Assembly: GCF_000371965.1 (NCBI RefSeq)
Contig: NZ_AQUO01000001.1
Coordinates: 1,359,331 to 1,391,330, forward strand
DNA from: Paracoccus sp. N5
GTDB taxonomy: Bacteria; Pseudomonadota; Alphaproteobacteria; Rhodobacterales; Rhodobacteraceae
Direction: 5' to 3'
DNA: 32,000 nt
Shown here in pieces: positions 17,257 to 30,674 of the stretch (position 1 is the stretch's first letter; each line of letters starts with the position of its first letter). The notes beneath the pieces were generated by a model. The model saw only the letters and a list, made by a program, of their open reading frames with translations. It did not search any database and was not told where the DNA came from. The position numbers and the translations under genes are program-made.

Positions 17257-18588
17257 ATGTCGCTGCGTGACCTGCCCTCGGTCGACCGGCTGCTGACCGA
17301 TTGCGGGGCGCTGATCGAAGAGCATGGCCGGGCGCAGGTCACTGATGCCTTGCGCGCCGAACTGGCCGCGATCCGCGAGGCCCGGCCCGATCCGCTGCCC
17401 GATGCGGCGGCGATCCTGGCGCTGGCGCAAGCCCGGCTGGCGCGGCTGGCGCAATCCCGGCTGCGCCCGGTGCTGAACCTGACCGGCACCGTGTTGCATA
17501 CCAACCTTGGCCGTGCCCTGCTGGCCGATGCCGCGATCGAGGCCGCAGTGGCCGCCATGCGCGCCCCCGCGGCGCTGGAATACGATCTCGACACAGGCGG
17601 GCGCGGCGAACGCGACAGCCACCTGCGCGGGCTTTTGTGCGAACTGACCGGGGCCGAGGATGCCACCGTGGTCAACAACAACGCCTCGGCGGTGCTGATC
17701 GTGCTGAACACGCTGGCGCGGGGCCGCGAGGCCGTGGTCTCGCGCGGGGAACTGATCGAGATCGGCGGCGCCTTCCGTATGCCCGCGATCATGGAACAGG
17801 CCGGCTGCCGGCTGCGCGAGGTCGGCACCACCAACCGCACCCATGCCAGGGACTACCGCGAGGCCATCACCGCCGAGACCGGCCTGTTGATGAAGGTCCA
17901 TACCTCGAACTACCGCATCGAGGGTTTCACCAAGCAGGTGCCGGCCCCCGAACTGGCGCAGATCGCGCATCAGGCGGGCCTGCCCATGGTCAACGACCTC
18001 GGCTCGGGCACGCTGGTGGATCTGCGCCGCTGGGGCCTCGCGCCCGAGCCGACCGTGGCCGAGGCGGTGGCCGAGGGCGCCGATGCCGTCACCTTCTCGG
18101 GCGACAAGCTGCTGGGCGGGCCGCAGGCGGGTTTCATCGTCGGCCGGCGCGAGATCATCGCCGCGATCAACAGGAACCCGCTGAAACGCGCCCTGCGCAT
18201 GGACAAGATCCGCATCGCCGCGACCGAGGCGACGCTGCGGCTCTACCGCGACCCCGACCGGCTGGCCGAGCGGCTGCCGACCCTGCGCCTGCTCTCGCGC
18301 CCGCTGGCCGAGATCCGGGCCCAGGCCGAACGGCTGGTGCCGATGGTCGCGCGCGCGCTCGGCTGCACCGTGACCGTGACCCCCTGCGCCAGCCAGATCG
18401 GCTCGGGCGCGCTGCCGACCGACACCATCCCCAGCGCCGGCCTCGCCCTGACCCCGCGTCCCGAGGCGCTGGCCGAAAGGCTGCGGGGCCTTGCCACCCC
18501 GATCATCGGCCGCATCCATGACGGCGCGCTGATCCTCGACCTGCGCTGCCTGCCCGATGACGCGGCGCTGACCCAAGCCCTGGCATGA
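17257..18588 (+). CDS. selA: L-seryl-tRNA(Sec) selenium transferase SelA
   Basis: 443 aa with PLP-lysine region [17 protein letters not shown]. Starts 1 nt after the fdhE stop. Confidence 0.92.
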
Positions 18589-20510
18589 TCGTCGGGACGG
18601 CCGGCCATATCGACCATGGCAAGACGGCGCTGGTCAAGGCGCTGACCGGCACCGACGCCGACCGCCTGGCCGAGGAAAAGGCCCGCGGCATCACCATCGA
18701 CCTGGGCTTCGCCTATGCCGACCTGGGTGCGGGCACAGTCACCGGCTTCGTGGATGTGCCGGGACACGAGAAATTCGTCCATACCATGCTGGCCGGCGCC
18801 GGCGGCATCGACCTGGCGCTGCTGGTCGTCGCCGCCGATGACGGCATCATGCCGCAAACCCGCGAGCATCTGGCCATCCTCGACCTGCTGGGCATCCGAC
18901 GCGGCATGGTCGCGCTGACCAAATCCGACCTGGCCGAGCCCGACCGGCTGGCCGCGCTGAGCGCCGAGATCGTCGAATTGCTGGCCCCGACCGGGCTTGA
19001 CGGCGCGCCGGTCTTCCCGGTCTCCGCGCTGACCGGCGCCGGCATCCCCGCCTTGCGCGAGGCCCTGGCCCGGGCCGAGGCCGAGACGGCCGCCCGCGCC
19101 ACCGGCGACCGCTTCCGCATGGCCATCGACCGCAGCTTCACCCTGGCCGGGGCCGGCACCGTCGTCACCGGCACCGTGCTCTCGGGCCGGGTGGCGACCG
19201 GGGACCAGGTGATGCTCAGCCCCTCGGGCCTGCCGGCGCGGGTGCGCGGCATCCATGCGCAGAACCGCAAGGCGGATCAGGGGCTTGCCGGCCAGCGCTG
19301 CGCCCTGAACCTTGCCGGCGAGGCGATCACGCGCGAGGCGATCCACCGCGGCGACCTGGCGCTGGACCCGGTGCTGCACGCGCCGACGCAGCGCATCGAC
19401 GCGACCCTGCGCGTGCTTGCCAGCGAGCCGAAGCCGCTGGCCAGCTGGTTTCCCGCCCGCCTGCACCTCGGCGCGGCCGAGACCGGCGCCCGCATCGTGC
19501 CGCTGCAAGGCCCGCTGGGTCCGGGCGAGACCGGGCTGGCGCAGATCGTGCTGGACCGCCCCGTCGCCGCAGCCTTCGGCGAGCGTTTCATCCTGCGCGA
19601 TACCTCGGCCCGGCGCACCATCGGCGGCGGCAGCCTGATCGACCTGCGCCCGCCCGCCCGCCACCGCTCGCGCCCCGAGCGGCTGGCGCAGCTCGCCGCC
19701 ATGGCCCTGCCCAACCCGGCCGAGGCCCTGGCCGCCATGGCGCGGCATGGCGCGGTGGACCTCGACGCCTTCGCCCGCGACCGCGCGCTGGCGCCGCCGG
19801 GTCTGGCCCAGGCCGTGGCCGCTTCGGGCGCCGCCGTGATCCCCGGCACCCGGCAGGCGCTGTCGCCCGACCTGCTCGACGCGCTGCGCCAAGGGGTCAC
19901 CGCCCAGCTCACCGCCTTCCACGCCGAGAATGCCGACCTGCAAGGCCTGGGCCGCGAGCGCCTGCGCCTGGCCGTGCATCCCCGCCTGTCGCGCCCCGAT
20001 TTCACCGCCCTTCTGCGCGCCGAGGCCGAGGCCGGCCGCATCGCGCTCGACGGCGCCTTCGTCCGCCTGTCCGGCCACCTGCCCCGGCTTTCGGACCAGG
20101 ACGAGGCGCTGCTGGCCCGGATCCTGCCGAGCCTGGACGGCGACGAACGGTTCCGCCCGCCCCGCGTCCGCGACTTCGCCACCGAAATCGGCGCCGACGA
20201 GGCCGAGATCCGCCGCATCCTGCGCATGGCCGCACGCCAGGGCCGCCTCGACCAGATCGCGCATGACCATTTCTTCGCCCGCGCCACCACGATCGAGATG
20301 GTCGCCATCATCCGCGATGTCGCGGCGCAGGCCCCGGACGGCTGGTTCACCGCCCCCGCCTTTCGCGACCGGGTCCAGAACGGCCGCAAGGTGGCGATCC
20401 AGATCCTGGATTTCTTCGACCGGCTGGGTCTGACCTTGCGCCGGGGCGATCTTCGTCGCATCAATCCGCATCGGATCGACCTGTTCCAGCCGGACGGGCC
20501 CGATATGTGA
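18585..20510 (+). CDS. selB: Selenocysteine-specific elongation factor SelB
   Basis: GTPase motifs [19 protein letters not shown] and TKSD, with a long C-terminal extension (641 aa). ATGA overlap with selA. Confidence 0.93.
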
Positions 20511-20516
20511 ACGCAG

Positions 20517-20559
20517 GGAAGAGAAGCGTCCCCGGTGGGGCGGCCGGACTTCAAATCCG
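20517..20559 (+). repeat. attL: displaced 5' fragment of tRNA-Sec (43 nt, non-functional)
   Basis: GGAAGAGAAGCGTCCCCGGTGGGGCGGCCGGACTTCAAATCCG is identical to 30093-30135. It begins 6 nt after the selB stop and ends inside the 3' strand of the anticodon stem. No variable arm, T-arm or acceptor 3' strand follows. Confidence 0.9.
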
Positions 20560-20738
20560 CCCGAAAAACCAGAAATTGCAGGCGTGGAAAGTTGCGGAAG
20601 CGGCTGGAACCTTTCCAGAACGCATCGTGAATGTTGCGACGGTCTGCCTTCTGATCGGCGGTCGCCTGACGGCCTCGGCCCATGGATCCCGAATGACTAT
20701 CGCGACCTGCGGGACCGCATCCTCGGGGAGGGTGCGGA

Positions 20739-21110
20739 ATGAGCCGAAAGGTTGCCACCCTCGTCTATGAACGCCGCGCCGGATCATCGGCCCGCAAGGC
20801 AGTCCTGGCCTATTTCGCCGACTGCGCCGACGACTACGGCCGCGGCATATGGGCGTCGAAGAAGACAATCGCCGATGAGACCGAGCTTGGTCGTTCGACC
20901 GTCATCCGCGTCGTCAACGAATTCGTCGCAGAGGGCATACTGATCGTGTCCGGCCACCGCCCTTGCCGCAACGGCGCGACGGTAAATTACGATATGAACC
21001 TCGACGCCATCCGAAACCTCCCCAGCATCAATGCTTCACCCGACCCGTCCCAGAGCGGGACCTCATGGGGTCCCAGAGCGGGACCCAAACCGTCCTTGAA
21101 CCGTCCTTGA
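20739..21110 (+). CDS. Winged-helix/HTH protein, phage replication-organizer-like
   Basis: 123 aa. The region ARKAVLAYFADCADDYGRGIWASKKTIADETELGRSTVIRVVNEFVAEGIL resembles the wHTH of phage/plasmid replication or DnaD-like proteins. SD GGGGAGGG precedes the ATG. The 3' end carries DNA repeats. Confidence 0.6.
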   Translation: MSRKVATLVYERRAGSSARKAVLAYFADCADDYGRGIWASKKTIADETELGRSTVIRVVNEFVAEGILIVSGHRPCRNGATVNYDMNLDAIRNLPSINASPDPSQSGTSWGPRAGPKPSLNRP

Positions 21111-21113
21111 ACC
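21047..21113 (+). repeat. Iteron-like repeats at the junction of the two replication-module ORFs
   Basis: GTCCCAGAGCGGGACC occurs twice (21047-21062 and 21070-21085), and each copy contains the hairpin GTCCC-AGAGC-GGGAC. A tandem ACCGTCCTTGA x2 plus ACC follows (21089-21113). Confidence 0.75.
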
Positions 21114-21616
21114 AAGATGATGATGACCGCGTGCGCGAGCCAGACCATTTTTGGGGAATGATCCTCGAGGCGATGGGGCTGGACCCGGCAGAGGCGACGG
21201 CGCTTGGCGGGCCGGCGGATATGGCTGAAGCACGGGGCTGGCTTAAGCTGCCGCATATCACCGAAGAGCTGGTTTGCGAGCAGATCCGCGTGGTCATAGC
21301 CCGGAAAGGCGACAGGCAAATTCACTGCCTGGCCTATTTCACCCCCGAGATGCAGCGCTTGAGCGCGAGCCTCGAGGCGAGCAAGGTTCCGCTGACGCCG
21401 GCGACGCGCAGGCAGCCGGGCAGAGGCGAGGCGGTTCCGATGGCCGCGAACTCGGGCAAGGTCGATCTGGACGGGTTGGCCGCGTTGTGGGCGCCGAAGG
21501 TGGCCGGCGGAGGATATGTCCCGTCCTCGGCCATCAGCCCGGCGTTGGCGCGGCACATGCTCGAAAAGGGTCTGGTTGCACCGGCCGATCTGCGGCGCGC
21601 CGGGGTGTCGACATGA
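21065..21616 (+). CDS. Hypothetical protein of the replication-like module (start uncertain; may once have been fused to 20739..21110)
   Basis: The open frame runs from 20963, with ATG candidates at 21065 and 21158. It overlaps the upstream ORF in the -1 frame. The C-terminal part has no family I can recognise. Confidence 0.45.
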   Translation: MGSQSGTQTVLEPSLNQDDDDRVREPDHFWGMILEAMGLDPAEATALGGPADMAEARGWLKLPHITEELVCEQIRVVIARKGDRQIHCLAYFTPEMQRLSASLEASKVPLTPATRRQPGRGEAVPMAANSGKVDLDGLAALWAPKVAGGGYVPSSAISPALARHMLEKGLVAPADLRRAGVST

Positions 21617-21804
21617 GCGCTGGCGCTGCCGGCCGCAGCGAAAAGCCCCCGACCTGCCCTGTGGCGGTCGGGTTTGCGGCGCTGGAGCTGGCGCGCGGCA
21701 GAGAGCAGACGCCGCCGATGGCCTTGCGCGGCACGTCCTGCATTGCAGGCTGGACGATCACGCCGCCGGGGCTGGGGGACGCCTGGCACCCCCCCTTTTC
21801 GTAG
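21613..21804 (+). CDS. Small hypothetical protein (63 aa)
   Basis: ATGA stop-start overlap with the preceding ORF, followed by a terminator. No recognisable motif. Confidence 0.35.
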   Translation: MSAGAAGRSEKPPTCPVAVGFAALELARGREQTPPMALRGTSCIAGWTITPPGLGDAWHPPFS

Positions 21805-21863
21805 GTTCTTCCGAGGCCCCCACGCCATGCGAGGGGCGTATCCCCGCAAATATTCGCATGTGC

Positions 21864-21888
21864 GTGCCCTTTCGGGCGGCACTTTTTT
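21864..21888 (+). terminator. Rho-independent terminator ending the replication-like module
   Basis: GTGCC (21864-21868) ... GGCAC (21878-21882), followed by TTTTTT (21883-21888). It sits in an unusually AT-rich spacer. Confidence 0.7.
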
Positions 21889-22087
21889 ATTACTTCCTGG
21901 GGTGCCGCCGTGGCCAATGTGGACCTGCTGCTTGACCGGGAATATCCTTTGATTTTTCATATGGCTGACCCGGCGTCGGTCGATGGCTGGATTGCCCGCA
22001 GACGACCCCCCCATGAAATCCCGCCAGAGGAACGGCACGGGATACCCCCGTAACGTCCGGTAAGCCACCACAAGGAAAGGCTTTGCC

Positions 22088-22291
22088 ATGCTGCCGCGCC
22101 TGAAAACCACCATCGAGATCGACGGCGAGACCGCGCAACGCGTCGAGGCAGAACGCGAGCGGATCGCGGCTGAAACCGGGCTGCCGAAGGTGTCGCTCGC
22201 TTCCGTTATCGCCGCCGTCCTGCGCCGGGGGCTGCCGGCCTCGCCCTGCGACGGGGCCAAGCCGCCCATGCAGCCGCGCCGCGCTCGCTGA
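22088..22291 (+). CDS. Small ribbon-helix-helix-like protein
   Basis: 67 aa. MLPRLKTTIEIDGETAQRVEAERERIAAETG has the beta-strand/helix pattern of CopG/Arc/MetJ proteins. SD AAGGAAAGG is present. Confidence 0.5.
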   Translation: MLPRLKTTIEIDGETAQRVEAERERIAAETGLPKVSLASVIAAVLRRGLPASPCDGAKPPMQPRRAR

Positions 22292-22312
22292 TTTTTCCAG
22301 CTAGGAACCGCC

Positions 22313-23491
22313 ATGAGTTTCAAGAACAATGCCCCCTTCGACCGCAGCCAGAGCCGCAATCGCAGCGTCGTCGGGCAATACCTGACCCGCAACCAGCAGC
22401 CCGCCGAAAGCGCGGCCATGCACCTGCTGCGCCTGGCGCATGAGGAAGCCAGCCGCGTCCAGTCGCTTGGCCCGTCAACGCCGGCGGCGGCCTCGGGGCA
22501 TGCCGGCCAGGTCGCGGATACCCCGGCTATGGAGCGGCTCACCGATGCCGTCGCGCAGGCGCGCCGCGCGCTGCCGTTTGCCGAGCATGCGCCGGGCGGC
22601 GACCTCGACCGCATCATGCGTATTCCGATGCCCGCAGCGCGCATGGTTCATCTGAATATCGGAACTGACCATCTGCCCGTCTTCGATGCCCCCGCGGGCA
22701 ACCAGCCCAGCGAGGCCATGACCCTGGCCGAAAGCCTGCTGACCCATGCCCGCACCTTCCAAGCCGGCGCGCGACTGCTGATCGAGCCCAAGGGCCGCGT
22801 CATCGAGACCGGCACCGGCGTGCCCGCGCTGCAGGTGGTGCCCATGGGCCTCGAGGTGGTGCGGGCCGCGCCCTTCGCGGTGGTGACGGACCCGGATGGC
22901 GACGATGATCCGGAAAACCCCGGCACGGCCCCGCTGATCCCGCTCGATACAATTCTGGCCGGCGCACGGATCGAAAGGCCCGACGATCTGAAAAACTATG
23001 CGATCCGGGTCTCGCTGACCCGGCGCGAACAGAAAGATCGCAACGACGGCGAGTTGCTGGCCGCTCTGCTGCATTCCATCACGCTGGGTCTGGCCCAGGC
23101 GGCCGATGCCGAGCTTCTGGGCGCGATCCTGGCGGCTGATCCGGGGACGTTCAGCCTGGGCGCTGCCGCGGCCAAGGGCGTGCGCTTTCACGAACTGCGC
23201 GCCATCGTCGGCACCGATGAGCCGGTGAGCGGGTCGGATTTCGGCCCGGGCTATGGCGACCAGCCCGGCCAGCTGTTCGTGCATTCGATCCCGGCCGAGC
23301 TGTGTGCCGCTGCCGCGCGGACGGTGATCGGCGCTTTCGATCGCTTTGGTCTGGCCATCGGCGGCGATATCCGGCTGCTGATCGATCGCACCGCCGTGGA
23401 TGGCAGCCTGACTGCCACCTGCTGGTGCGCGATGAAGGCTGTCCTGCCCGATCCGGGCTTTGCCTGGCGCTTTACTCCGGAGATGCCGTGA
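22313..23491 (+). CDS. Candidate HK97-fold major capsid-like protein (divergent)
   Basis: 392 aa. The segment IRVSLTRREQKDRNDGELLAALLHSITLGLAQAADAELLGAIL and the C-terminus ..LTATCWCAMKAVLPDPGFAWRF resemble the conserved central and C-terminal patterns of phage major capsid proteins. Small coupled ORFs and a gpZ-like gene follow, matching the lambda/HK97 head-to-tail gene order. This call rests on pattern recognition only. Confidence 0.45.
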   Translation: MSFKNNAPFDRSQSRNRSVVGQYLTRNQQPAESAAMHLLRLAHEEASRVQSLGPSTPAAASGHAGQVADTPAMERLTDAVAQARRALPFAEHAPGGDLDRIMRIPMPAARMVHLNIGTDHLPVFDAPAGNQPSEAMTLAESLLTHARTFQAGARLLIEPKGRVIETGTGVPALQVVPMGLEVVRAAPFAVVTDPDGDDDPENPGTAPLIPLDTILAGARIERPDDLKNYAIRVSLTRREQKDRNDGELLAALLHSITLGLAQAADAELLGAILAADPGTFSLGAAAAKGVRFHELRAIVGTDEPVSGSDFGPGYGDQPGQLFVHSIPAELCAAAARTVIGAFDRFGLAIGGDIRLLIDRTAVDGSLTATCWCAMKAVLPDPGFAWRFTPEMP

Positions 23492-23844
23492 TGGGCCTGC
23501 GGGACTGGTTCAGCCCCCGCGGCGCGCATCGGCCCGCACCCGCGGCGCCGGGGAACATGCTGCCGGCCGAGGTCGTGGCTGTGGTGCAGGCGGCAAGCAT
23601 CCGCAACGCCAACCGCCCGGATGCCGAGGGCAGCCCGATCATCCATGTGACGGCGCCGGCGCTGGGCCGGTTCCGCTGGGTCGATCTGGACAAGGCTGCC
23701 GACCGCATTTCGGATGCCTGGCCCGAGCTGACGCCCGCCCAGTGCTTCCGCGCCGCGCAGCTGATCGAGGCGGCGGTGGGCGACGCGGCCATTGCGAGCC
23801 TGCAGCGCGGGCAACCCCGGCGCAGCTGGGTCTGGGACTGGTGA
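23491..23844 (+). CDS. Hypothetical protein (117 aa), head-tail connector position
   Basis: TGATG stop-start overlap with the capsid-like gene. Its position is that of head completion/adaptor genes. Confidence 0.5.
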   Translation: MGLRDWFSPRGAHRPAPAAPGNMLPAEVVAVVQAASIRNANRPDAEGSPIIHVTAPALGRFRWVDLDKAADRISDAWPELTPAQCFRAAQLIEAAVGDAAIASLQRGQPRRSWVWDW

Positions 23845-24017
23845 TGGCGCGCAAGCCGCTGCCCGCGTCTCTGCGCCGCCTCGCCAAGCCCACGGCCGCG
23901 CTGGCGGTCGAGAATACACCCCCGCCCAAGGGCAAGAACCCCAGCGCCCGCCGGGTTCGGCGGCTGGCGCGCAAGGGCTGGCTGATCGGCTGGCCGTTTT
24001 CCAAAGGAGTGCTGTGA
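23844..24017 (+). CDS. Small basic hypothetical protein (57 aa)
   Basis: TGATG overlaps at both ends. Lys/Arg-rich. Confidence 0.45.
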   Translation: MARKPLPASLRRLAKPTAALAVENTPPPKGKNPSARRVRRLARKGWLIGWPFSKGVL

Positions 24018-24364
24018 TGGCGACACGCTATCAGCTGACGATCATCGGGGAAGCCGCCCAGGTTGCGCCTTCCATCATCGTGGACGGGCGCGCGTTGCAG
24101 GACGGCCAGAGGGTCGAGGTTGACCTTGCCACGGCCGTGGCCCTGGTCGAGCGCGGCCTTGCTATCCCGCGCGGCAGGATCGAGATCGAGCCGGTGCTGA
24201 AACCGAAACGCGGGCAGGCTGTCATGGTCGATGGCAGGGCCTGCTTTGACGGCGACACGGTCGAGGCCGGCTGGGCCGTCGCGCATGACCTGGTCGCGCG
24301 CGGCCGTGCCCGTCTGGCCGAGGGCGTCAGGCTGCCCCGCTTCAACCCGGATGCGCGCAAATGA
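24017..24364 (+). CDS. Hypothetical protein with two copies of a ~35-aa module
   Basis: Contains IIVDGRALQDGQRVEVDLATAVALVERGLA and VMVDGRACFDGDTVEAGWAVAHDLVARGRA. TGATG overlap upstream and ATGA overlap downstream. Confidence 0.55.
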   Translation: MATRYQLTIIGEAAQVAPSIIVDGRALQDGQRVEVDLATAVALVERGLAIPRGRIEIEPVLKPKRGQAVMVDGRACFDGDTVEAGWAVAHDLVARGRARLAEGVRLPRFNPDARK

Positions 24365-24576
24365 TGTTCGAAATCGAGATCATCGGCCAGCACCGGCCAG
24401 CCTCGCCCCTGCGCCCCGCACCGCGGGCAGGGATCATCCTGCATGGTCAGGCCCGCCTTGCCGGCGAGCGCATCAGCGTGGACTGGGCGACTGCGCGGCA
24501 CCTGATCGCCAACGGCCGCGCCAAGCCCGCGCCGGGCGTGACGATCCCGCTCTTGGACCCGGAGCGGCGCCAATGA
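24361..24576 (+). CDS. Hypothetical protein with a third copy of the same module
   Basis: IILHGQARLAGERISVDWATARHLIANGRA aligns with both repeats of the preceding ORF. ATGA overlaps on both sides. Confidence 0.55.
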   Translation: MMFEIEIIGQHRPASPLRPAPRAGIILHGQARLAGERISVDWATARHLIANGRAKPAPGVTIPLLDPERRQ

Positions 24577-25172
24577 GCCGATGGAGCCGCCGTATTCCCG
24601 GCCCGCAGGTTTCCATCGAGGTCGATCTCCGCCAGGTCAAGATGGTGATTGATGAGCTGAAAAGTACCAAGGAGGAGGTCGGCGCGTCCCTATCCAAAGC
24701 ACTGCGCCGCACCGCCAGCGCCTTGCGCGTCATGTCATCCAAGCGCCTGGTTCCCGAACTTCAGCTGCGCCGCGCAATGGACCTGCGCAAACGGCTGAAA
24801 ACCATGAAGGTACGGGCCAAGGGCAAGGACGCCGAACAGGTGATTGGCTTGTGGTTCGGGCTGTCCAGGATGCCGGTCTCGGCCTTCAAGGGCCGGCCCG
24901 TACAAACCGGCAAAGGCGTGAGCTTTCAAGGCAGAGAATATAAGGGCCGATTCCTGGCAACCATGCCAGGACAGACGCATGCCGGAATGTTCCGCCGCAA
25001 GGGTCGTGCGCGTTTGCCGATTGTCGGTCAGAACGTCGAGATCAAGGATGTGGTGGACCCGATCATCGAGGATGAAATCTTCCCGAAGGCCACGGAAATA
25101 TTCATCCGGAACTTCCTGCATGATCTGAAGTGGCGTGCCAGCCAGCGGAACAAGCCTTCAGCCGGGGAATAG
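24573..25172 (+). CDS. Phage minor tail protein Z-like / tail-completion protein
   Basis: 199 aa. The layout ..ALRRTASALRVMSSKRLVPELQLRRAMDLRKRLK.., ..MPVSAFKGRPVQTGKGVSF.., ..GMFRRKGRARLPIV.. parallels lambda gpZ as I recall it. It is the last gene of the virion-type operon. Confidence 0.5.
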   Translation: MSRWSRRIPGPQVSIEVDLRQVKMVIDELKSTKEEVGASLSKALRRTASALRVMSSKRLVPELQLRRAMDLRKRLKTMKVRAKGKDAEQVIGLWFGLSRMPVSAFKGRPVQTGKGVSFQGREYKGRFLATMPGQTHAGMFRRKGRARLPIVGQNVEIKDVVDPIIEDEIFPKATEIFIRNFLHDLKWRASQRNKPSAGE

Positions 25173-25182
25173 CATCGGGATA

Positions 25183-25212
25183 CCCGGCGCGCTGTTCATG
25201 GGGCGCGCCGGG
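25183..25212 (+). terminator. GC-rich hairpin, probable terminator of the virion-type operon
   Basis: 10-bp perfect stem CCCGGCGCGC (25183-25192) / GCGCGCCGGG (25203-25212) with a 10-nt loop. It starts 11 nt after the TAG stop. No U-tract. Confidence 0.5.
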
Positions 25213-25492
25213 CAGACGGGGCGGGATGCGCCTGGCTTTTATCCATGGGCCGAAGCAACCGGGCAAGTCGGCGAGTGCCCCATAACCCCGACATGGCGCG
25301 GCCGTGGCCTTGTCGGCGCGGCGCCACAGCCCCGGTGCAGCACATGCTGGCCGGGGCTTTCTCTTTGCGCCAGCGGCGTGCCATGGCACACCTGCCATTG
25401 GCGGACGTGCGCGCCGGGTTGTTCAACCTGCAATGCAGGATGTTGCATCTCTACCACACTCCCCATTGGGGGACGTCATCAATGTGAGGGCG

Positions 25493-25512
25493 TCAGACCC
25501 CGGCCAGCTTGC
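25493..25512. repeat. 20-bp direct repeat of the brnA 3' end
   Basis: TCAGACCCCGGCCAGCTTGC is identical to 25628-25647, which covers the stop codon and last 6 codons of brnA on the minus strand. Confidence 0.8.
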
Positions 25513-25627
25513 CAGAGGTGTTCCACCGGCGGTGGACGACATCCGCGCCGGGCAGAGCGCGAACGTCCTTCATCCTCGCTTTGAGGGCGGATCATTGCGA
25601 CAACCCCCATGGGGCTCGCCAGGCGGA

Positions 25628-25870
25628 TCAGACCCCGGCCAGCTTGCGCAGGGCGTCGTCTATGCGGCTTTGCCAGCCCGGGCCGCCGGCCTTGAAATAG
25701 GCGATCACCTCGGGGCTAAGCCGGATGGTGGTGCTGACCTTGGCGTTTTCCAGCTTCGGCCGGCCGCGCTGGACCGTGGCCTTGGCGGCGCGCTTTTCCC
25801 AATAGGGCGTCGCCAGGTCGGGCGCGTCGTCGTCAAAATCGGGGGGCATAGGCTTTCTGTTCGCGGTCAT
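25628..25870 (-). CDS. brnA: BrnA-family antitoxin
   Basis: 80 aa. ..RGRPKLENAKVSTTIRLSPEVIAYFKAGGPGWQSRIDDALRK.. matches the BrnA (COG3514) signature. It overlaps the brnT 3' end. Confidence 0.8.
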   Translation of the reverse strand: MTANRKPMPPDFDDDAPDLATPYWEKRAAKATVQRGRPKLENAKVSTTIRLSPEVIAYFKAGGPGWQSRIDDALRKLAGV

Positions 25871-26105
25871 TGGCCTTCCTCATGCTGATGACGTGGGCGG
25901 TGTCGCTGCGCGGCGTCCAGACCATCACCACCATGCGGCCGCGCAGGAAGCCGATGCTGATGAGGCGGGTTTCGCCATAGTCGAAGCGATCATCCTCGAA
26001 CGTCAGTGTCGCGCCAGCCAGAACCTCGGCGCCGTCCGCTTCAAGATCGATCCCCCGCTCTGCAAGGGTCTTGGCGCGCTTCGCCGGGTCGCTGGTGCAT
26101 TTCAT
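25833..26105 (-). CDS. brnT: BrnT-family (DUF497) ribonuclease toxin
   Basis: 90 aa. DPAKRAKTLAERGIDL...DDRFDYGETRLISIGFLRGRMVVMVWTPRSDTAHVISMRKANDRE matches the BrnT pattern, including ISMRKA..E. Confidence 0.8.
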   Translation of the reverse strand: MKCTSDPAKRAKTLAERGIDLEADGAEVLAGATLTFEDDRFDYGETRLISIGFLRGRMVVMVWTPRSDTAHVISMRKANDREQKAYAPRF

Positions 26106-26153
26106 GTAGTAACAATAATTATGAGGGGCGCGGGCGTCAATATCTGTAGTAAC
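26105..26153. promoter_or_regulatory. Candidate brnTA operator: two TGTAGTAAC boxes 40 bp apart
   Basis: TGTAGTAAC at 26105-26113 (abutting the brnT start codon) and at 26145-26153, within an AT-rich 60-bp spacer. Confidence 0.4.
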
Positions 26154-26165
26154 GGAAAGTCGTGG

Positions 26166-26540
26166 TCAGGGCTTGAGGCGACGCTTGCGGCGTCTGCGCG
26201 GCAACAGAAGCTGCGGGAGGGCATGATAGCAACCCAGCCGCAAGCTTATAATCAGCGGAGGCGTCCATCCCGGTATCCAGGGTTCGGTCTCTTTGGCGGT
26301 GATCACTCCGTGCATCACATGCTCCACCTTGTTCACCGCTCCGCCGCGAACAATGAAGGCGACCCTTGCCCCCTCGACCACGCCCCACAACGCCAGCACA
26401 TCGGGACAGTAGTGGGTCAATAGCAGGGATATTTCCATGCTCTCTTGTTCCGCGTCTAGGTGCGCGGGCGGGGTGAAATCTATGATATGCCCGGCATAGC
26501 CCTTGTCAGCGACAGATAGGAACATGGTCGACAAAGGCAT
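26166..26540 (-). CDS. Hypothetical protein (124 aa), unknown function, lower-GC cargo gene
   Basis: The ORF lies 6 nt downstream of the Arc-like gene on the same strand. It has a basic C-terminal tail RRRRKRRLKP. I recognise no family. Confidence 0.45.
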   Translation of the reverse strand: MPLSTMFLSVADKGYAGHIIDFTPPAHLDAEQESMEISLLLTHYCPDVLALWGVVEGARVAFIVRGGAVNKVEHVMHGVITAKETEPWIPGWTPPLIISLRLGCYHALPQLLLPRRRRKRRLKP

Positions 26541-26546
26541 TGGCGG

Positions 26547-26945
26547 TCAGGGCTTCAGGCGCTGGGCGAGCTTGTCTGCCAGCAGGTTGGCAAAGCTCTC
26601 AATGTCATCTGCAGCCCGCAGCTTTCTCAATACCTGTCCGATCGGCATTTTCCCGACATCTGGCACCCCCTTCAGGGCATCGCCGATGCCCTCACTCTGC
26701 CGATCCAAGGCTGCTACAGGCTCCCCGCTTTCTTCATGCTTTGCCAACATATCGCCGACCGTGTTGGGGCGATCTTCGTCATGCCAATCGTAATACTTCT
26801 GGAGCGCCATCAGAATTTCTGAATGAAGGCTGCGCCCATGCAGATCAGCCTCCTCCTGAATAAACTCCTTCAAGGCCGGCGGGATGCGCAAGCCATAGGG
26901 TGCCAGGCGGGTGGGGTATTTTCGAGAGTCAGCCATAGCGGCCAT
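26547..26945 (-). CDS. Arc/MetJ-type ribbon-helix-helix regulator with a ~80-aa C-terminal extension
   Basis: YGLRIPPALKEFIQEEADLHGRSLHSEILMALQKYY is an Arc-family RHH motif. The start is uncertain (ATG 26945, 26936 or 26978). Confidence 0.65.
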   Translation of the reverse strand: MAAMADSRKYPTRLAPYGLRIPPALKEFIQEEADLHGRSLHSEILMALQKYYDWHDEDRPNTVGDMLAKHEESGEPVAALDRQSEGIGDALKGVPDVGKMPIGQVLRKLRAADDIESFANLLADKLAQRLKP

Positions 26946-27006
26946 TGGTAACCAATTTTTCCTTGACTGAAAATACATACCAATGGTAACTAACTACCAA
27001 TGGTAG
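26942..27006. promoter_or_regulatory. Divergent promoter/operator region with three CCAWTGGTA boxes
   Basis: CCATTGGTAA at 26942-26951, CCAATGGTAA at 26980-26989, and CCAATGGTAG at 26997-27006. The AT-rich spacer contains TTGACT (26963-26968). The region lies between two divergently oriented Arc-family genes. Confidence 0.55.
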
Positions 27007-27024
27007 TTGATGGAGAGCACCCAG

Positions 27025-27183
27025 ATGGAAAAATATGAGCAGATCTCGCTGCGCCTACCCGACGGTTGGCGCCGTGCGCTGAAGATCGCCGCCGCCGTGA
27101 ACGGCCGCAGCATGAACGCCGAGATCGTGCAGCGTCTGCGCCCGACCCTCGAAGCCGCCGATGCCCAGCGCCCGCAATCCTGA
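27025..27183 (+). CDS. Arc-family ribbon-helix-helix repressor (not in the supplied ORF track)
   Basis: My own translation gives MEKYEQISLRLPDGWRRALKIAAAVNGRSMNAEIVQRLRPTLEAADAQRPQS*. The motif LRLP....L...A...GRSMNAEIV..L is the Arc-domain signature. SD GGAGAG precedes ATG 27025 (alternative ATG 27010). Confidence 0.7.
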   Translation: MEKYEQISLRLPDGWRRALKIAAAVNGRSMNAEIVQRLRPTLEAADAQRPQS

Positions 27184-27253
27184 AATGAAAGCGGCCGGGC
27201 AGCGTTGCACCGCTGACACCGGCCTTGATGCCCCCGAGAAAGGACATTTCCCC

Positions 27254-27478
27254 ATGAATATCCCTGAAAATCCCTGCAAAGGCAACCTGCCGGTTTCGCC
27301 AGCGCCCCGCCGCCGGCCCGGCCAGCCCAAGCGCAAGGCCACCGAAAAGCGCGTCAGCCGCGCCGCCAGCCTGATCCAGGACCATATCGCTGTGCTGACT
27401 GCCCAGCGCATCACGCTGCCCGTCCTCGGTCTCGAGGTCGCGCTGGATGAGCTGCGCCAAATCGGGGGTGCGCAATGA
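27254..27478 (+). CDS. Small hypothetical protein (74 aa), ends ..RQIGGAQ
   Basis: SD AAAGGA upstream. The 3' end is junction cassette copy 1. The N-terminus MNIPENP parallels MNIQPNEP of ORF 31092..31313. Confidence 0.5.
   Translation: MNIPENPCKGNLPVSPAPRRRPGQPKRKATEKRVSRAASLIQDHIAVLTAQRITLPVLGLEVALDELRQIGGAQ
27461..27478 (+). repeat. Stop-start junction cassette copy 1 (ATCGGGGGTGCGCAATGA)
   Basis: 18-mer shared with 27808-27825 (identical), 28397-28414 and 28600-28617 (2 to 3 differences each), and with 31092-31109 on the minus strand. Confidence 0.85.
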
Positions 27479-27825
27479 ACCGCCGCGATCTGATCGCCCT
27501 GCCGGCCGCTGTCGCCTTCGCACCTGCGCCGGCGCTGGGCGCTGCAATCGCCCCGGTTTCCCTGCGGGCGCTGTGGCAGCATGCGAAAGCGCTGAATGAC
27601 CGCCTCGAGGCGACCGAGCGCGCCGAGGATCCGGTCGCCTGGGATGCCGGCATGGCGCAGCTCATCCATCTTCAGGACCGGATCGCCGCGGCACCGGCCT
27701 GCACGCCCGAGGCTTGGGCGATAAAGGTCTTGAGCGCCGACGATGGCGGCGCCATCGAGAATGCCAGCGATCTGGGCCGCGCCCTGGTCGAACAGGCGCG
27801 CAGCATGATCGGGGGTGCGCAATGA
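27475..27825 (+). CDS. Hypothetical protein with twin-arginine-like N-terminus (116 aa), ends ..SMIGGAQ
   Basis: MNRRDLIALPAAVAFAPAPALGAA is similar to MNRRALLKALPAAVVAGAAPAAA of ORF 30321..30674. ATGA overlaps at both ends. Confidence 0.55.
   Translation: MNRRDLIALPAAVAFAPAPALGAAIAPVSLRALWQHAKALNDRLEATERAEDPVAWDAGMAQLIHLQDRIAAAPACTPEAWAIKVLSADDGGAIENASDLGRALVEQARSMIGGAQ
27808..27825 (+). repeat. Stop-start junction cassette copy 2 (ATCGGGGGTGCGCAATGA)
   Basis: Identical to copy 1. Confidence 0.85.
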
Positions 27826-28202
27826 GCCGCCGTCCCACCGTGGCGCGTTTCTCGCTTTCCGCGTCCGCGCGCCAGCACATCGACGCCATCATGGCTACGG
27901 CACGCGACCAGATAGAAGCCGTTCTGCAACGAGAGGTGTCCCGCCTGATCGCAGATGCGCATGACGGCGCTAACCAAAAGGCTGCGCACCACCGCCCGGC
28001 GAAGCAGGAGGTTATGGCAACGCCCGCAGTCCCGCAGCCGATCTATATCCGCCCGGGCAAGGCGCAGCAGATGTTCGGCGTGCATCGCGCAACGCTATAC
28101 CGCTGGGCGAATGCCGGCCACATCACCATTCACAAGCGCGGCGCAGCGACCTTTGTCCGGCTGGACGAGGTGCGCGCCTTCATCGAAGGAAACCAGCCAT
28201 GA
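27822..28202 (+). CDS. Excisionase/AlpA-type HTH DNA-binding protein
   Basis: The C-terminal IYIRPGKAQQMFGVHRATLYRWANAGHITIHKRGAATFVRLDEVRAFIEG matches the MerR-like HTH_17/AlpA/Xis pattern. It lies upstream of int in the same operon. Confidence 0.65.
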   Translation: MSRRPTVARFSLSASARQHIDAIMATARDQIEAVLQREVSRLIADAHDGANQKAAHHRPAKQEVMATPAVPQPIYIRPGKAQQMFGVHRATLYRWANAGHITIHKRGAATFVRLDEVRAFIEGNQP

Positions 28203-28414
28203 TGACGCGCGACCTGCAACGCGCCGCGAACGACCAGACGGAGGCCGACGCCCAGGCTGAAGAGATCCTGCGCCGCGTCTATGCGCTGACCGCCCCTTAC
28301 CAGCGCCGCGTGGTCGAATGGCTGCGCGGGCATTCCGACCCCGACATGCGCGACCTCGCCACGCCGCTCGAGGAGGTGCTCACCCTTCGCCGACTGATCG
28401 GGGGTGAACAATGA
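28199..28414 (+). CDS. Small hypothetical protein (71 aa), ends ..RLIGGEQ
   Basis: ATGA overlaps on both sides. SD AAGGA upstream. Confidence 0.5.
   Translation: MMTRDLQRAANDQTEADAQAEEILRRVYALTAPYQRRVVEWLRGHSDPDMRDLATPLEEVLTLRRLIGGEQ
28397..28414 (+). repeat. Stop-start junction cassette copy 3 (ATCGGGGGTGAACAATGA)
   Basis: 16 of 18 identical to copy 1. Confidence 0.8.
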
Positions 28415-28617
28415 GCATTACCCGCATCATTCAGGTGGATACGCAAGGCAAGCCGCTTGACGGGCCAGACCTGATCTTCACGAACAAGTGGGCTGTCAAA
28501 GCCGGATTAATGGAAAATCGGCCGGTCGTTGTTCGGGCATTTGAAGCGCGAATCACGAAAAAGGGCTTGGCCGAAATCGCCCGTCAGATGGGCCGGCAGA
28601 TCGGGGGTGAACCATGA
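28411..28617 (+). CDS. Small hypothetical protein (68 aa), ends ..RQIGGEP
   Basis: ATGA overlaps on both sides. Locally lower GC. Confidence 0.5.
   Translation: MSITRIIQVDTQGKPLDGPDLIFTNKWAVKAGLMENRPVVVRAFEARITKKGLAEIARQMGRQIGGEP
28600..28617 (+). repeat. Stop-start junction cassette copy 4 (ATCGGGGGTGAACCATGA)
   Basis: 15 of 18 identical to copy 1. Confidence 0.8.
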
Positions 28618-28835
28618 CCCGGCTTGTCCATCCCTCCTCGCCGCTCCGGCACCAGACGCTGATCTTCGCCGGCTATGCTGCCCTTCTCTTGGCCTTCGGC
28701 GCCGCGGCGCTGGGCGCCCTGTTGGCCCCGCAGTTCGACTGGGCGGGCCTCTGGGGCGATCTGTCCGACTTTGCCGCCTCCACGGCCGCCCAGGCGCGCG
28801 CCGAGGGCTGGGCCGCGCTTTCCGAGAGGGCGTGA
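28614..28835 (+). CDS. Small membrane protein (73 aa, one TM helix)
   Basis: Hydrophobic stretch LIFAGYAALLLAFGAAALGALLA. ATGA overlap upstream. Confidence 0.5.
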   Translation: MTRLVHPSSPLRHQTLIFAGYAALLLAFGAAALGALLAPQFDWAGLWGDLSDFAASTAAQARAEGWAALSERA

Positions 28836-28838
28836 GCC

Positions 28839-29012
28839 ATGGGTGTCCGTACCAAGTTCAGCCAAGCCGACCTAGAGAAGGTGCTTCGCACGACCAGAGA
28901 GGCCGGCCTGCCGGTGACCGTAGTCAGGATAGGGCCGCAGGGGGAAATCGAAGTGCGCTGCGGCCCGCAGGAACCCGCAGACGAATTCGACGCGACGGAT
29001 ATGCGCCGATGA
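28839..29012 (+). CDS. Small hypothetical protein (57 aa; not in the ORF track)
   Basis: My own translation gives MGVRTKFSQADLEKVLRTTREAGLPVTVVRIGPQGEIEVRCGPQEPADEFDATDMRR*. SD GAGAGGG upstream, and an ATGA overlap with the int start. Confidence 0.5.
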   Translation: MGVRTKFSQADLEKVLRTTREAGLPVTVVRIGPQGEIEVRCGPQEPADEFDATDMRR

Positions 29013-30016
29013 CCAAGAAGGAACTGCCGAAACACGTCTATCGCAAGAAGGGCGGCAAGGTCTATTTTCAGCGCCGCGGCTTCAAGACGGTCCGTTTCAT
29101 CAGCGAACCGGGCACTTCGGAGTTCGCTGCGGAATATGCCCTGATCCTGCGCGGCCGCGCGCCGGTGCCCGAAGGGCGAACCCTGAAGGCATTGGCGATC
29201 AGTTACCAGCTCAGCGACCGCTTCACGGGCTTGGCGCCTAGAACGCGGCAGGATTATCTGCGCGTGCTGGACTATGTGAAGGAGAAGCTGGGCCACCTGC
29301 CGGCCGACAGAATGCAGCGCAAGGACGTGATCCGGGCACAGCAGGCCAACAAGGACGCGGTGCGCTTCGCCAACTACATCGTCCAGGTGCTTCGCGTCAT
29401 GTTCGAGCATGGGATCGATCAGGGCTGGCGTGACGACAATCCAGCCAAAGGCGTTCGCCTGCTGAAAAGCGGTCGGCCGCCCCGCTTGCCATGGCCGCCC
29501 GAGAAAATCACGGCGTTCCGTGAGGCTGCGCCCCTTGGGACCCGCGGCAGGTTGATCTTCGAGCTTCTGCTGGGCACCGGCCAGCGCATTGGTGATGTGC
29601 TCAAGATGCGGTGGAACGACCTCGAGGAAGGCGGGGTGAATGTCCGACAGGGCAAGACAGGAGCGGAGTTGTGGATACCGCTGACCAGCGGCTTGCGCGA
29701 GGCGCTGGGCGCGACGCCAAAGGCCGGACTGACCATCTGCGCGCAGCTGAACGGCAGCCCGACCAGCTACGACGGTGCGCATGCCATGATCATGGCCATT
29801 CGAAAGGAAATCGGCGCCGAGGCCTTCGACATTCACGCCTTGCGCCACACCGCGGCGCATGAGCTGGCTGCGGCCGGCTGCTCGGGCGAACTGATCCAGG
29901 CGATCACGGGGCATACGAACCTGGGGATGGTGAAGCACTATACTGGTTCCGCTAGCCAGAAGCCCCGTGCTAAGGAGGCGCAGTCGCGCCGCGAACAGAA
30001 CAGGTGCGAAACGTGA
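29009..30016 (+). CDS. int: Tyrosine recombinase / phage-type integrase
   Basis: 335 aa with catalytic signature LLLGTGQRIGD (Arg I), HALRHTAAH (H-x-x-R), ITGHTN and VKHY (Tyr). Start at ATG 29009, not at 28529 as in the track. It ends 76 nt before tRNA-Sec. Confidence 0.9.
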   Translation: MTKKELPKHVYRKKGGKVYFQRRGFKTVRFISEPGTSEFAAEYALILRGRAPVPEGRTLKALAISYQLSDRFTGLAPRTRQDYLRVLDYVKEKLGHLPADRMQRKDVIRAQQANKDAVRFANYIVQVLRVMFEHGIDQGWRDDNPAKGVRLLKSGRPPRLPWPPEKITAFREAAPLGTRGRLIFELLLGTGQRIGDVLKMRWNDLEEGGVNVRQGKTGAELWIPLTSGLREALGATPKAGLTICAQLNGSPTSYDGAHAMIMAIRKEIGAEAFDIHALRHTAAHELAAAGCSGELIQAITGHTNLGMVKHYTGSASQKPRAKEAQSRREQNRCET

Positions 30017-30092
30017 AAGTTGAGAAGCTGTTGCGAACGGCCCAAATCGGGGGCACGGATGCAGCGAACAAACCATTGGAAACGATGGTGAT

Positions 30093-30135
30093 GGAAGAGA
30101 AGCGTCCCCGGTGGGGCGGCCGGACTTCAAATCCG
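30093..30135 (+). repeat. attR core: 43-bp repeat forming the 5' part of the intact tRNA-Sec
   Basis: Identical to 20517-20559. The flanking bases differ on both sides (20516 G vs 30092 T; 20560 C vs 30136 G). Confidence 0.9.
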
Positions 30136-30188
30136 GTTGGGGCAGTCAGCCTGTCCCGGGTGGGTTCGACTCCCACTCTCTTCCGCCA
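30093..30188 (+). tRNA. selC: tRNA-Sec (anticodon UCA)
   Basis: 96 nt with an 8-bp acceptor stem GGAAGAGA/TCTCTTCC, discriminator G and encoded CCA. The anticodon stem is CCGGA/TCCGG with loop CTTCAAA (TCA at 30127-30129). It has a long variable arm and a T-arm GTGGG-TTCGACT-CCCAC, and overall closely parallels E. coli selC. Confidence 0.93.
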
Positions 30189-30320: not shown

Positions 30321-30674
30321 TCAAGCAACGAGCGCTCGGGCCTCGGCCCAGAAAGCATGATCGTCATTCGGCAATTCAAATGTCCCGTAGCTCGTCCACG
30401 CCAGCGCCTTGGCGATCATGTCGCGCGCATCCTCTGCGGGCGCTTCCATAATCCGATTGCTCAACTCATTCTGAGCGAACAGGTCGGCGTTAAACTGGCT
30501 CTCGGGCATCGTGCGGCCTTCTTCGCCGTTCAGTCGGGTTTCCTCGGCAACCCACTGTCGAAACATCCGCATGACCGGCGTCTCAGCCAGGTCGACCACG
30601 CACAGCGCAGCAGCCGGCGCCGCACCCGCGACAACCGCCGCAGGCAGGGCTTTCAGAAGGGCACGGCGGTTCAT
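30321..30674 (-). CDS. Hypothetical protein with twin-arginine-like N-terminus (117 aa); paralog-like to 27475..27825
   Basis: Reads MNRRALLKALPAAVVAGAAPAAA.... SD AAGGAGG upstream and an ATGA overlap with the upstream ORF. Confidence 0.55.
   Translation of the reverse strand: MNRRALLKALPAAVVAGAAPAAALCVVDLAETPVMRMFRQWVAEETRLNGEEGRTMPESQFNADLFAQNELSNRIMEAPAEDARDMIAKALAWTSYGTFELPNDDHAFWAEARALVA

Follow-up and report, generated by a model that had tools for sequence, protein, structure and literature searches.

The 32-kb window analysed here, that is, the whole stretch of 32,000 nucleotides from Paracoccus sp. N5, carries between selB and selC (the tRNA-Sec gene) a discrete 9.6-kb integrative element at positions 20517–30135, hereafter the island. 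The island is probably a helper-dependent phage satellite that makes its own shell, of a family undescribed in the literature searched. It belongs to a widespread and apparently undescribed family of small islands, which most likely ride on a helper phage. Transfer of the island, the identity of its helper, and the source of its portal are what we infer from the findings below.

An operon of virion genes

Seven co-directional open reading frames (ORFs) on the forward strand form the virion operon of the island (22088–25172). The ORFs are coupled by five start/stop overlaps, TGATG at 23491, 23844, and 24017 and ATGA at 24361 and 24573, and the same junction overlaps are conserved in the related loci L005 and L011 (L numbers denote loci compared with the window). 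A first reading of this DNA, made from its letters only (the sequence-only reading), had described a seven-gene virion operon with five overlaps inside a 9.6-kb element bounded by attachment (att) sites; the ORFs and the junctions are as claimed, and the att sites at the borders are a 43-nt repeat. A terminator-like hairpin with a T-run marks the end of the operon (25219–25243, forward strand).

The first ORF encodes a protein of 67 aa (22088–22291). It is followed by the gene for a predicted HK97-fold major capsid protein of 392 aa, recognized by structure search (22313–23491), and by the gene for its 117-aa partner (23491–23844). Next come a 57-aa basic ORF (23844–24017), a 115-aa protein with two copies of a ~55-aa domain (24017–24364), a 71-aa protein with one copy of the same domain (24361–24576), and a 199-aa protein predicted to be a tail-completion protein of the Neck1 or lambda gpZ type (24573–25172). 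The 67-aa protein is probably a ribbon-helix-helix regulator. This call was also made in the sequence-only reading and is confirmed by no profile, the ORF having no significant match in Pfam; it is based on the sequence pattern and on conservation of the ORF, which has homologues in the same position in L001, L005, L011, and L014. The 57-aa ORF has homologues in L003, L011, and L014 and is absent from L001, L002, and L005.

Purifying selection acts on the capsid and gpZ-like genes, and the four ORFs compared here are real, constrained genes. In pairwise comparisons with relatives, the ratio of nonsynonymous to synonymous substitution rates (dN/dS) is 0.20–0.24 for the capsid gene (unsaturated comparisons) and 0.21–0.24 for the gpZ-like gene; it is 0.25–0.53 for the 117-aa ORF and 0.18–0.69 for the 115-aa ORF.

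The capsid protein and its partner

The 392-aa protein has no match at E ≤ 1 in Pfam, PHROGs, or NCBIfam. It also has no sequence match in the PDB, whether a single alignment or a 150-sequence profile is used, and no tblastn match among 50,697 phage genomes. Its structure was modelled with AlphaFold (AF2) from a 17-sequence alignment (pLDDT 72.6, pTM 0.66), and the model has a 30-residue helix at 245–274. A Foldseek search with this model at E ≤ 0.001 yields 191 PDB matches and 207 BFVD matches, the best at 2.5e-12. The top 50 matches in the PDB and BFVD are all HK97-fold capsids or encapsulins, each with a Foldseek probability of 1.00. The PDB matches include the capsid of roseophage R4C, the capsid of the gene transfer agent (GTA) RcGTA, the capsid of EcCI2 (9gyi), which is a capsid-forming phage-inducible chromosomal island (cfPICI), and the SaPIbov5 procapsid with Ccm (7rwz). 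As judged from the model, the product of 22313–23491 is a capsid protein with the HK97 fold and represents a distinct lineage that lacks annotation, which bears out the earlier description of this ORF as an HK97-like capsid candidate. About 70 helical N-terminal residues of the 392-aa protein are extra, that is, not present in the short members of its family.

A homologous protein of ~120 aa is encoded after the capsid gene throughout the capsid family (alignment A5), and the two genes are co-inherited across very different hosts. In the island this partner is the 117-aa ORF at 23491–23844, which has no match in Pfam or PHROGs. That it is a scaffold or decoration protein is a guess.

Two other assignments of the shell protein were considered and rejected. 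A link to the RcGTA gene transfer agent was dropped, since the 9.6 kb of the island exceeds the GTA payload of roughly 4 kb and no GTA-type genes are present; the GTA capsid is also structurally no closer than other HK97 capsids. An encapsulin system was rejected as well: the neighbours of the shell gene are a Neck1 gene and small phage-related ORFs, with no adjacent cargo enzyme, and relatives of the shell protein are fused to a prohead protease.

The neck protein and the small repeat-domain proteins

The product of 24573–25172 matches phrog_27, annotated as tail completion or Neck1, at 8.3e-28 over residues 14–192. It is ~40% identical to the Neck1 proteins of 52 phages and 54% identical to that of the phage contig L016, which is the closest gpZ homologue found in IMG/VR. 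There is no direct match to Pfam PF06763; the Neck1 protein of L016 reaches Pfam Minor_tail_Z with 24.0 bits at a cut-off of 23.9. By these similarities the product is a member of the Neck1/lambda gpZ-type tail-completion family, and the gpZ-like label that the gene had been given is upheld. In phage Arya and in L016 the Neck1 gene is placed after Hc1 and before baseplate or tail genes. In the island neither an Hc1 homologue nor tail genes flank the gpZ-like gene.

The ~55-aa domain occurs in three copies across the 115-aa and 71-aa ORFs, which are paralogous to each other, and it is also found in the small gene after the head gene of phages Arya and L016. The 115-aa ORF matches phrog_14235 and phrog_2616 at 1e-4, and the same PHROG covers the small gene of L016. 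The 71-aa ORF is weakly similar to L016_96, itself with a sub-threshold match to DUF7210. Weak matches to Arya gp06 arise from related copies of the domain in s115-type proteins and in L012_78. A model of the 71-aa protein from a three-row alignment (pLDDT 56.6) is too poor to use, and Foldseek finds nothing for it at E ≤ 0.001. The sequence-only reading had placed the four small ORFs of the operon in the position of connector genes. The position is the expected one, though none of the four has an adaptor or head-closure match in Pfam or PHROGs, and the connector labels are not supported.

A family of compact islands

The capsid family was delimited by a full hidden Markov model (HMM) search of 1.84 billion representative proteins. 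It comprises 283 clusters at E ≤ 0.001 and 225 at E ≤ 1e-30, and its members fall into two size classes, of 300–390 aa and of 490–560 aa, the latter being fusions of the capsid domain with an S78 prohead protease. These fusions tie the family to true virion heads rather than to encapsulins. In word-indexed homologue searches, deeper alignments brought in only three members new to that search (P0018, P0162, and P0035) and retrieved P0062 and P0122 as well. Of 120 stretches picked up in metagenomes with a degenerate DNA pattern built on the ELRAxVGT motif, one (L033) is a true homologue.

The genomic context of the capsid gene was read in 12 cases. All 12 are compact islands of 8–10 kb flanked by housekeeping or tRNA genes, never a full prophage, and none contains a terminase or portal family. 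The expectation that close homologues do not sit in full-length prophages is thereby borne out in every readable context. Every complete island has an integrase (L001 and L014 are truncated), and most have AlpA or HTH_17 regulators. Replication modules of O-like, AAA_25, VapE, or helicase type are interchangeable across islands, and integrases, attachment sites, and toxin-antitoxin cargo vary as well. The same compact layout with swapped modules in 12 contexts therefore argues for a mobile, modular type of element and not for a one-off deletion.

The island of the window lies at selC and carries an O-like initiator and BrnTA. L003 of P. simplex, likewise at selC, has a disrupted capsid reading frame. 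P. aminovorans has two loci: L001, beside selB, is truncated and has lost its integrase side, and L002, at tRNA-Cys, has an integrase only 36% identical to that of the window. L014 of P. limosus has an HTH_36 initiator, and its contig is too short for an att site. Among metagenomic islands, L005/6 lies at tRNA-Cys with an AAA_25 replication gene, the contig ends of L011 match the selC att core of the window and HicAB replaces BrnTA, and L007–10 has tRNA-Ser at one end, a P4-type integrase, AlpA, and a VapE primase. Metagenomic L012/13 has AAA_25 and an 820-aa PhageMin_Tail protein. Protease-capsid fusions are found in L015 from IMG/VR (with integrase and helicase), in L137/8 of Solilutibacter silvestris (with the N-terminal third of a P2 gpI-type tail protein), and in metagenomic L139/40 (with a 680-aa PhageMin_Tail protein); the last two lie between housekeeping genes.

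Intact att repeats lie 9.1–9.8 kb apart in four elements, at tRNA-Sec and tRNA-Cys: the window island, L002 (9,837 nt), L003 (9,144 nt), and L005 (9,411 nt). The third virion component varies from lineage to lineage. Distant islands carry a different single tail-related gene instead of Neck1, at 6074–8536 in L012, 11833–13875 in L139, and 12149–12745 in L137; those of L012 and L139 are the PhageMin_Tail genes of 680–820 aa, which are tape-measure-like. A second mini-island follows the first one directly at tRNA-Cys in L005 (16741–20064). It consists of an integrase fragment, genes for a 164-aa Phage_capsid_4 protein and a Phage_cement_2 protein, an Arc-like gene, and another integrase. The pair suggests tandem accretion of small capsid-gene islands.

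A decayed prophage that has kept its capsid-to-neck segment by chance would show the order of head gene, small genes, and Neck1 that is found in the complete phages Arya and L016, could well retain a fragment of a tube gene as the island does (see below), and would fit with the clear decay of some sister copies. We regard this origin as improbable. The same layout is seen in 12 contexts whose integrases, att sites, and replication and cargo modules differ, with no family member seen beside a terminase or portal in any of them, and the sequence of the capsid is unrelated to that of the head protein in the phages with a shared Neck1. Furthermore, the coding genes are under purifying selection and their start/stop overlaps are intact. 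The earlier argument against simple decay thus stands on the intact att repeats of four elements, the swapped modules, and the selection on the genes, yet the capsid ORFs of L002 and L003 are disrupted.

A shared box and candidate helper phages

Comparison of the island DNA with L016 revealed an 18-nt box of the form GAAATC[C/G]CGCCAGAGGAA. In the window it reads GAAATCCCGCCAGAGGAA and lies at 22015–22032 on the forward strand; the first gene of the capsid operon starts 56 nt downstream of it. The window holds one copy, against 0.03 expected by chance, and L016 holds four copies on the coding strand (2365, 5705, 6339, and 10376), against 0.01 expected. The box is found at the same relative position, ahead of the capsid operon, in all Paracoccus-group islands. 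The distant L007–10 islands have a variant with one mismatch upstream of the second alpA gene and a 30-nt repeat with the same core ~140 nt before the capsid gene.

Among 2.9 million IMG/VR contigs, the box GAAATCSCGCCAGAGGAA occurs in only 10 (loci among L016 and L141–L151). Six of the 10 are L016-type head/baseplate modules, in which the box occupies the same positions: ahead of the gpW-like, head, and gp25-like genes and also within the head gene. Three others are tail modules with P2-type sheath, tube, and tape measure. Here the box closely precedes the sheath gene, and in two of the three it directly follows a hairpin with a T-run. Judging from these positions, the box is found where late transcription units begin in one phage group, and it heads the virion operon of the island. 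It is a candidate helper-responsive promoter element. A weaker CA-N3-TG is seen ~20 nt downstream of the box. A sigma54 or ECF-type reading was dropped, as the spacing to the downstream conserved bases is unfit.

The phages in question are rare. The L016 contig runs terL, gpW-like gene, portal, protease-head fusion, small repeat-domain gene, Hc1, Neck1, gpV-like gene, and gp25-like gene, and the L016-type group combines lambda-like heads with P2-like tails. The operon had been read as the head-to-tail segment of a siphovirus map; this framing is to be replaced, the homologous phages being myoviruses. Besides the 54% identical Neck1 and the small repeat domain, the island shares with the L016/L144 group a fragment of a tail tube gene (26166–26540, reverse strand). 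Its product is a truncated homologue of the P2 FII-type tube protein, 124 aa long as compared with 169 aa, and is 40% identical to the tube protein of L144 (E 4e-26), which in turn matches Pfam Phage_tube at 2.9e-55. We count these shared parts as support for gene flow between the island and phages of the L016/L144 type, as far as sequence similarity can indicate it. In sequence, the island capsid protein is not similar to the head protein of the L016-type group.

The tube fragment is present in the window island only, with no counterpart in the sister islands L001–L003, and lies between the toxin gene and an Arc-like gene in the lowest-GC kilobase of the island (0.57). It also bears on the gene content as first described. 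When all island ORFs are compared with Pfam, PHROGs, and NCBIfam, no HNH gene is found, and no terminase, portal, protease, or lysis gene either, the latter four as the sequence-only reading had it; its further statement that no tail gene is present is, because of the truncated tube homologue, true only of intact tail genes.

The HK97 fold, the encapsulins among the structural matches, and the lack of portal and terminase are also what would be expected of an autonomous mini-virus with neither tail nor portal, or of an encapsulin-like compartment on a mobile island, as proposed for gut elements of 8.9 kb with a similar size and gene mix (Aguilar et al. 2025, 10.1101/2025.06.18.659913). Such an origin is the least probable of those considered. 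The island conserves under selection a neck protein that joins head to tail, its sister lineages carry tail-related genes, the control box is common to the operon and a group of tailed phages, and no cargo enzyme adjoins the shell gene.

Attachment site and setting

The borders of the island are a perfect 43-nt direct repeat, 20517–20559 and 30093–30135, which corresponds to positions 1–43 of tRNA-Sec. The tRNA-Sec gene selC (30093–30188) is the sole tRNA gene in the window. Because the repeat is a perfect copy of the 5' part of this gene, the 9.6 kb between selB and selC represent a discrete insertion. The left site, attL (20517–20559, forward strand), lies 6 nt past the selB stop and is the displaced chromosomal copy of the first 43 nt of tRNA-Sec. 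The right site, attR, is part of the restored tRNA-Sec gene (30093–30188, forward strand), the first 43 nt of which are island-derived. Identity between the two sites ends directly past the anticodon loop. Rfam gives a weak tRNA-Sec match at 20516–20616 and finds nothing besides tRNA-Sec in the island.

Duplication of the 5' part of the tRNA, with a crossover past the anticodon loop, is seen both in the window element and in L002 (7813–7902 and 17650–17739); in the tRNA-Cys elements 47 nt of upstream DNA are duplicated as well. The restored tRNA thus owes its 5' half and its promoter side to the island, the reverse of the usual 3'-end arrangement, and expression of selC may depend on the island. 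For an insertion between selB and selC, this raises the question of whether tRNA-Sec expression may need the island.

Upstream of the island lie formate dehydrogenase genes, selA (17257–18588), and selB (18585–20510). Just beyond selC, three small overlapping ORFs occupy lower-GC DNA (0.60) on the reverse strand (30321–31095). The first of them equals the island ORF 27475–27825 in length and resembles it at the N-terminus (MNRR.L...LPAAV). Paralogy between the 116-aa island ORF and this 117-aa ORF was rejected, the BLAST match not being significant (E 14). The three ORFs may be the relic of an earlier island.

Replication, regulation, and cargo genes

The island begins with a replication module on the forward strand. 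ORF 20739–21110 encodes the winged-helix N-terminal part of a lambda-O-like replication initiator (Pfam HTH_36 1.7e-8; PHROG replication-initiation and O-like families, best 8e-14). It overlaps by TTGA at 21107 with ORF 21107–21616, which encodes the C-terminal part of the initiator; this part has 169 aa and an uncertain start, is conserved in L001, L002, L003, L011, and L014, and has no profile match in Pfam, PHROGs, or NCBIfam. Two iteron-like copies of GTCCCAGAGCGGGAC lie at 21047–21084 (forward strand), inside the 3' end of the N-terminal ORF, and L002 has four copies at the same place. The iteron call is based on the two exact adjacent copies of the window and the four of L002; when mismatches are allowed, the total number of matches in the window is not above chance. 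The GTCCCAGAGCGGGAC iterons are a probable replication origin. The initiator is a single ORF of 313 aa in L011 (285–1226) and is split at the iterons into two ORFs in the window, L002, and L014.

Between the initiator and the virion operon lies a conserved non-coding block (21785–21900, forward strand). It contains a terminator-like hairpin with a T-run (21865–21878) and a 12-nt palindrome-like site, GCAAATATTCGC in the window and the perfect palindrome GCGAATATTCGC in L003.

Downstream of the operon, on the reverse strand, are the BrnA/BrnT toxin-antitoxin pair (25628–26105; Pfam BrnA_antitoxin 4e-19, BrnT_toxin 1e-18), the tube fragment, and a candidate Arc-like repressor (26547–26978; Pfam Arc 9e-5 and PHROG Arc-like families). 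The 3' end of brnA has an exact 20-nt duplicate in the spacer after the gpZ-like gene (25493–25512, identical to 25628–25647), 135 nt downstream of brnA, which is probably a scar of cargo exchange.

The right part of the island, on the forward strand, holds a chain of six small overlapping ORFs (27161–28835) and the tyrosine integrase gene (29009–30016; Pfam Phage_integrase 8e-27). The chain includes an excisionase or AlpA-type regulator with an HTH_17 domain (27822–28202; Pfam HTH_17 2e-9, phrog_66 excisionase 9e-10). A ~25-nt junction repeat, ATCGGGGGTGCGCAATGA..., recurs at 27452–27480, 27799–27827, 28388–28416, 28591–28619, and 20716–20744, at stop/start overlaps of consecutive small ORFs. 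As a result of this recurrence, four small proteins all end in IGG(A/E)(Q/P). The junction sequence is conserved in L002 and L003 too.

Proposed life cycle and its weak points

If the island is a satellite with a shell of its own, its cycle may proceed as follows. A myovirus of the L016/L144 type, whose head is lambda-like and whose tail is P2-like, would enter its late phase, either as a resident of the cell or after infecting it, and the island would be derepressed by this helper. The late-gene activator or sigma factor of the helper would also fire the island operon via the shared box at 22015–22032, much as P2 Ogr acts on P4 late promoters. The island would excise and replicate from its iterons. 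The island capsid protein would then build a small shell for ~9.6 kb, probably of T=3 or T=4, on the helper portal. The helper terminase would fill this shell, and the island Neck1 together with the small proteins would adapt the neck for attachment of the helper tail. The toxin-antitoxin pair would act as a stabiliser of the island or be its cargo.

Several points weigh against this proposal. Its main weakness is the missing portal. A foreign shell, dissimilar in sequence to the candidate helper's own head protein, would need the portal of the helper and possibly its protease and scaffold, and we know of no precedent for a foreign shell built on a helper portal. Neither a cos or pac site nor a small terminase is found in the island, no cos-like match emerges when the island DNA is compared with L016 and Arya, and no helper lies within the 32-kb window. 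The 117-aa and repeat-domain proteins have no assigned role, and the initiator of the window is split into two ORFs. Some sister copies are decaying: the capsid frame is broken in L002 (10001–11159, near the N-terminus) and L003 (2871–3937), the gpZ-like gene is broken in L003 (5022–5329), and L001 has lost everything beyond brnA, including the integrase. Finally, the contexts sampled represent 12 of the 283 family clusters.

With neither portal nor protease nor scaffold, the island could also be a satellite whose capsid homologue co-assembles with the head protein of the helper, or redirects it, as Ccm does, or one that is packed as a concatemer in heads of helper size. The SaPIbov5 procapsid with Ccm is among the structural matches, and satellites of the PICMI and VEIME types are carried as concatemers within heads of full size (PMC9618062). 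We consider this unlikely. No similarity in sequence is detectable between the island capsid and the candidate helper's head protein, so that mixed lattices are less likely, relatives of the island capsid are fused to their own prohead protease, as expected of self-sufficient shells, and the capsid gene is co-inherited with its 120-aa partner across very different hosts.

Phage satellites interfere with their helpers, and the island may serve such interference with little or no gain in transfer, as an anti-phage island whose capsid-, Neck1-, and tube-like proteins are decoys that poison the assembly of an invader. This would account for the single odd and sometimes truncated helper-type part of each lineage (the tube fragment, the gpI-type third of L137, and the tape-measure-like proteins of L012 and L139) and for the toxin-antitoxin and M78/DUF4411 cargo. 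It is somewhat less likely again than co-assembly or concatemer packaging. Lineages that have switched from one tRNA gene to another still retain the integrase, excisionase, origin, and att sites, which points to selection for mobility, and interference and transfer are not mutually exclusive.

For a satellite that builds its own shell, the mechanistic puzzle is how a shell protein with no portal, protease, or terminase of its own gains a portal vertex and DNA. The 18-nt box singles out one phage group as candidate helpers and is itself a candidate control element, and the host Paracoccus is culturable. The findings also matter for annotation. At least 283 capsid clusters are missed by current capsid profiles and satellite models, and the RefSeq genes are called hypothetical; therefore, standard annotation may overlook a sizeable part of phage parasitism. 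In the window itself, the capsid-like, 117-aa, and gpZ-like proteins have exact record matches from strain N5; two of the three have RefSeq accessions (WP_017999039.1 and WP_017999044.1), with no name other than 'hypothetical protein'.

Comparison with known systems

Most of the known phage satellites come from Enterobacterales, Firmicutes, and Vibrio. For Paracoccus, Rhodobacterales, or Alphaproteobacteria, the literature searches turned up no account of elements of this kind, in line with the sequence-only reading, which was aware of none described for Rhodobacterales or at selC. The text of the SatelliteFinder survey mentions Alphaproteobacteria 0 times (PMC10085698).

P2 and P4 late promoters respond to Ogr/delta. 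With P4 the island has in common a size of ~10 kb, a location at a tRNA gene, an integrase, an AlpA-like regulator, and replication functions of its own, and its candidate helpers have contractile tails of the P2 type. A short box with a predicted promoter function is common to the island operon and several late units of the helper type, which resembles the late promoters of P2 and P4. Unlike P4, the island has no match in PHROGs or Pfam to the P4 core proteins Psu, Sid, delta, and alpha primase. Moreover, P4 remodels the capsid protein of its helper, whereas the island brings a capsid gene.

SaPIbov5 uses Ccm to obtain small heads, and Ccm is recognisably related to the capsid protein of the helper and co-assembles with it. 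The island resembles SaPIbov5-type cos satellites with Ccm in that it carries an HK97-fold capsid homologue and no terminase or portal of its own. It differs from them in that its capsid has no detectable similarity to the head protein of the candidate helper, in its hosts, which are Proteobacteria, and in its co-inherited 120-aa partner and Neck1 gene.

The 'Twilight' mini HK97 elements of human gut metagenomes (~8.9 kb) are described as encapsulin-like, possibly tail-less viruses (Aguilar et al. 2025, 10.1101/2025.06.18.659913). By their description they share with the island an HK97 capsid gene, an integrase, an excisionase, RepA or helicase genes, and regulators, and they have no terminase, portal, or tail genes; one of them carries a tape-measure gene (10.1101/2025.06.18.659913). 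The neck and tail parts of the island and its shared control box set it apart and point to a tailed helper. Marine VEIMEs are without capsid genes (PMC9618062).

The closest comparison in logic is with cfPICI, which were reportedly treated by Alqurainy et al. in 2023. Like them, the island is small and integrative, with an integrase, an AlpA-type regulator, a replication module, and its own HK97-fold capsid, and it would use helper tails. The combination of integrase, regulator, and replication gene by which cfPICI are recognized is present in the island (8e-27 for the integrase, HTH_17 at 2e-9, and the O-like initiator). The cfPICI model further comprises terS, terL, HNH, protease, and head-tail adaptor and connector proteins, with a median size of 14 kb, and tail genes are forbidden in the SatelliteFinder model (de Sousa et al. 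2023, PMC10085698). Unlike cfPICI, the island has a size of 9.6 kb, lacks terS, terL, HNH, and prohead protease (Pfam, PHROGs, NCBIfam) as well as a portal, and contains tail-associated parts, namely the Neck1/tail-completion gene and the tube fragment; standard capsid profiles do not detect its capsid lineage. The sequence-only reading had called the design cfPICI-like, though smaller and with a different gene set. As a statement of logic this holds; as membership it does not, given the absence of terS, terL, HNH, and protease.

A broader proposal, which we put forward as tentative, is that such islands are minimal satellites of a class that is widespread in Alpha- and Gammaproteobacteria and has gone unrecognised. 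Members of this class would have their own HK97 shell, in some cases protease-fused, a partner of ~120 aa, and one helper-matched neck or tail part; the shell would be assembled on the helper portal, and late transcription would be tapped via the 18-nt box. If true, this would be a mode of hybrid-head piracy that stands between P4, which has no capsid gene, and cfPICI, which have a complete head and packaging set.

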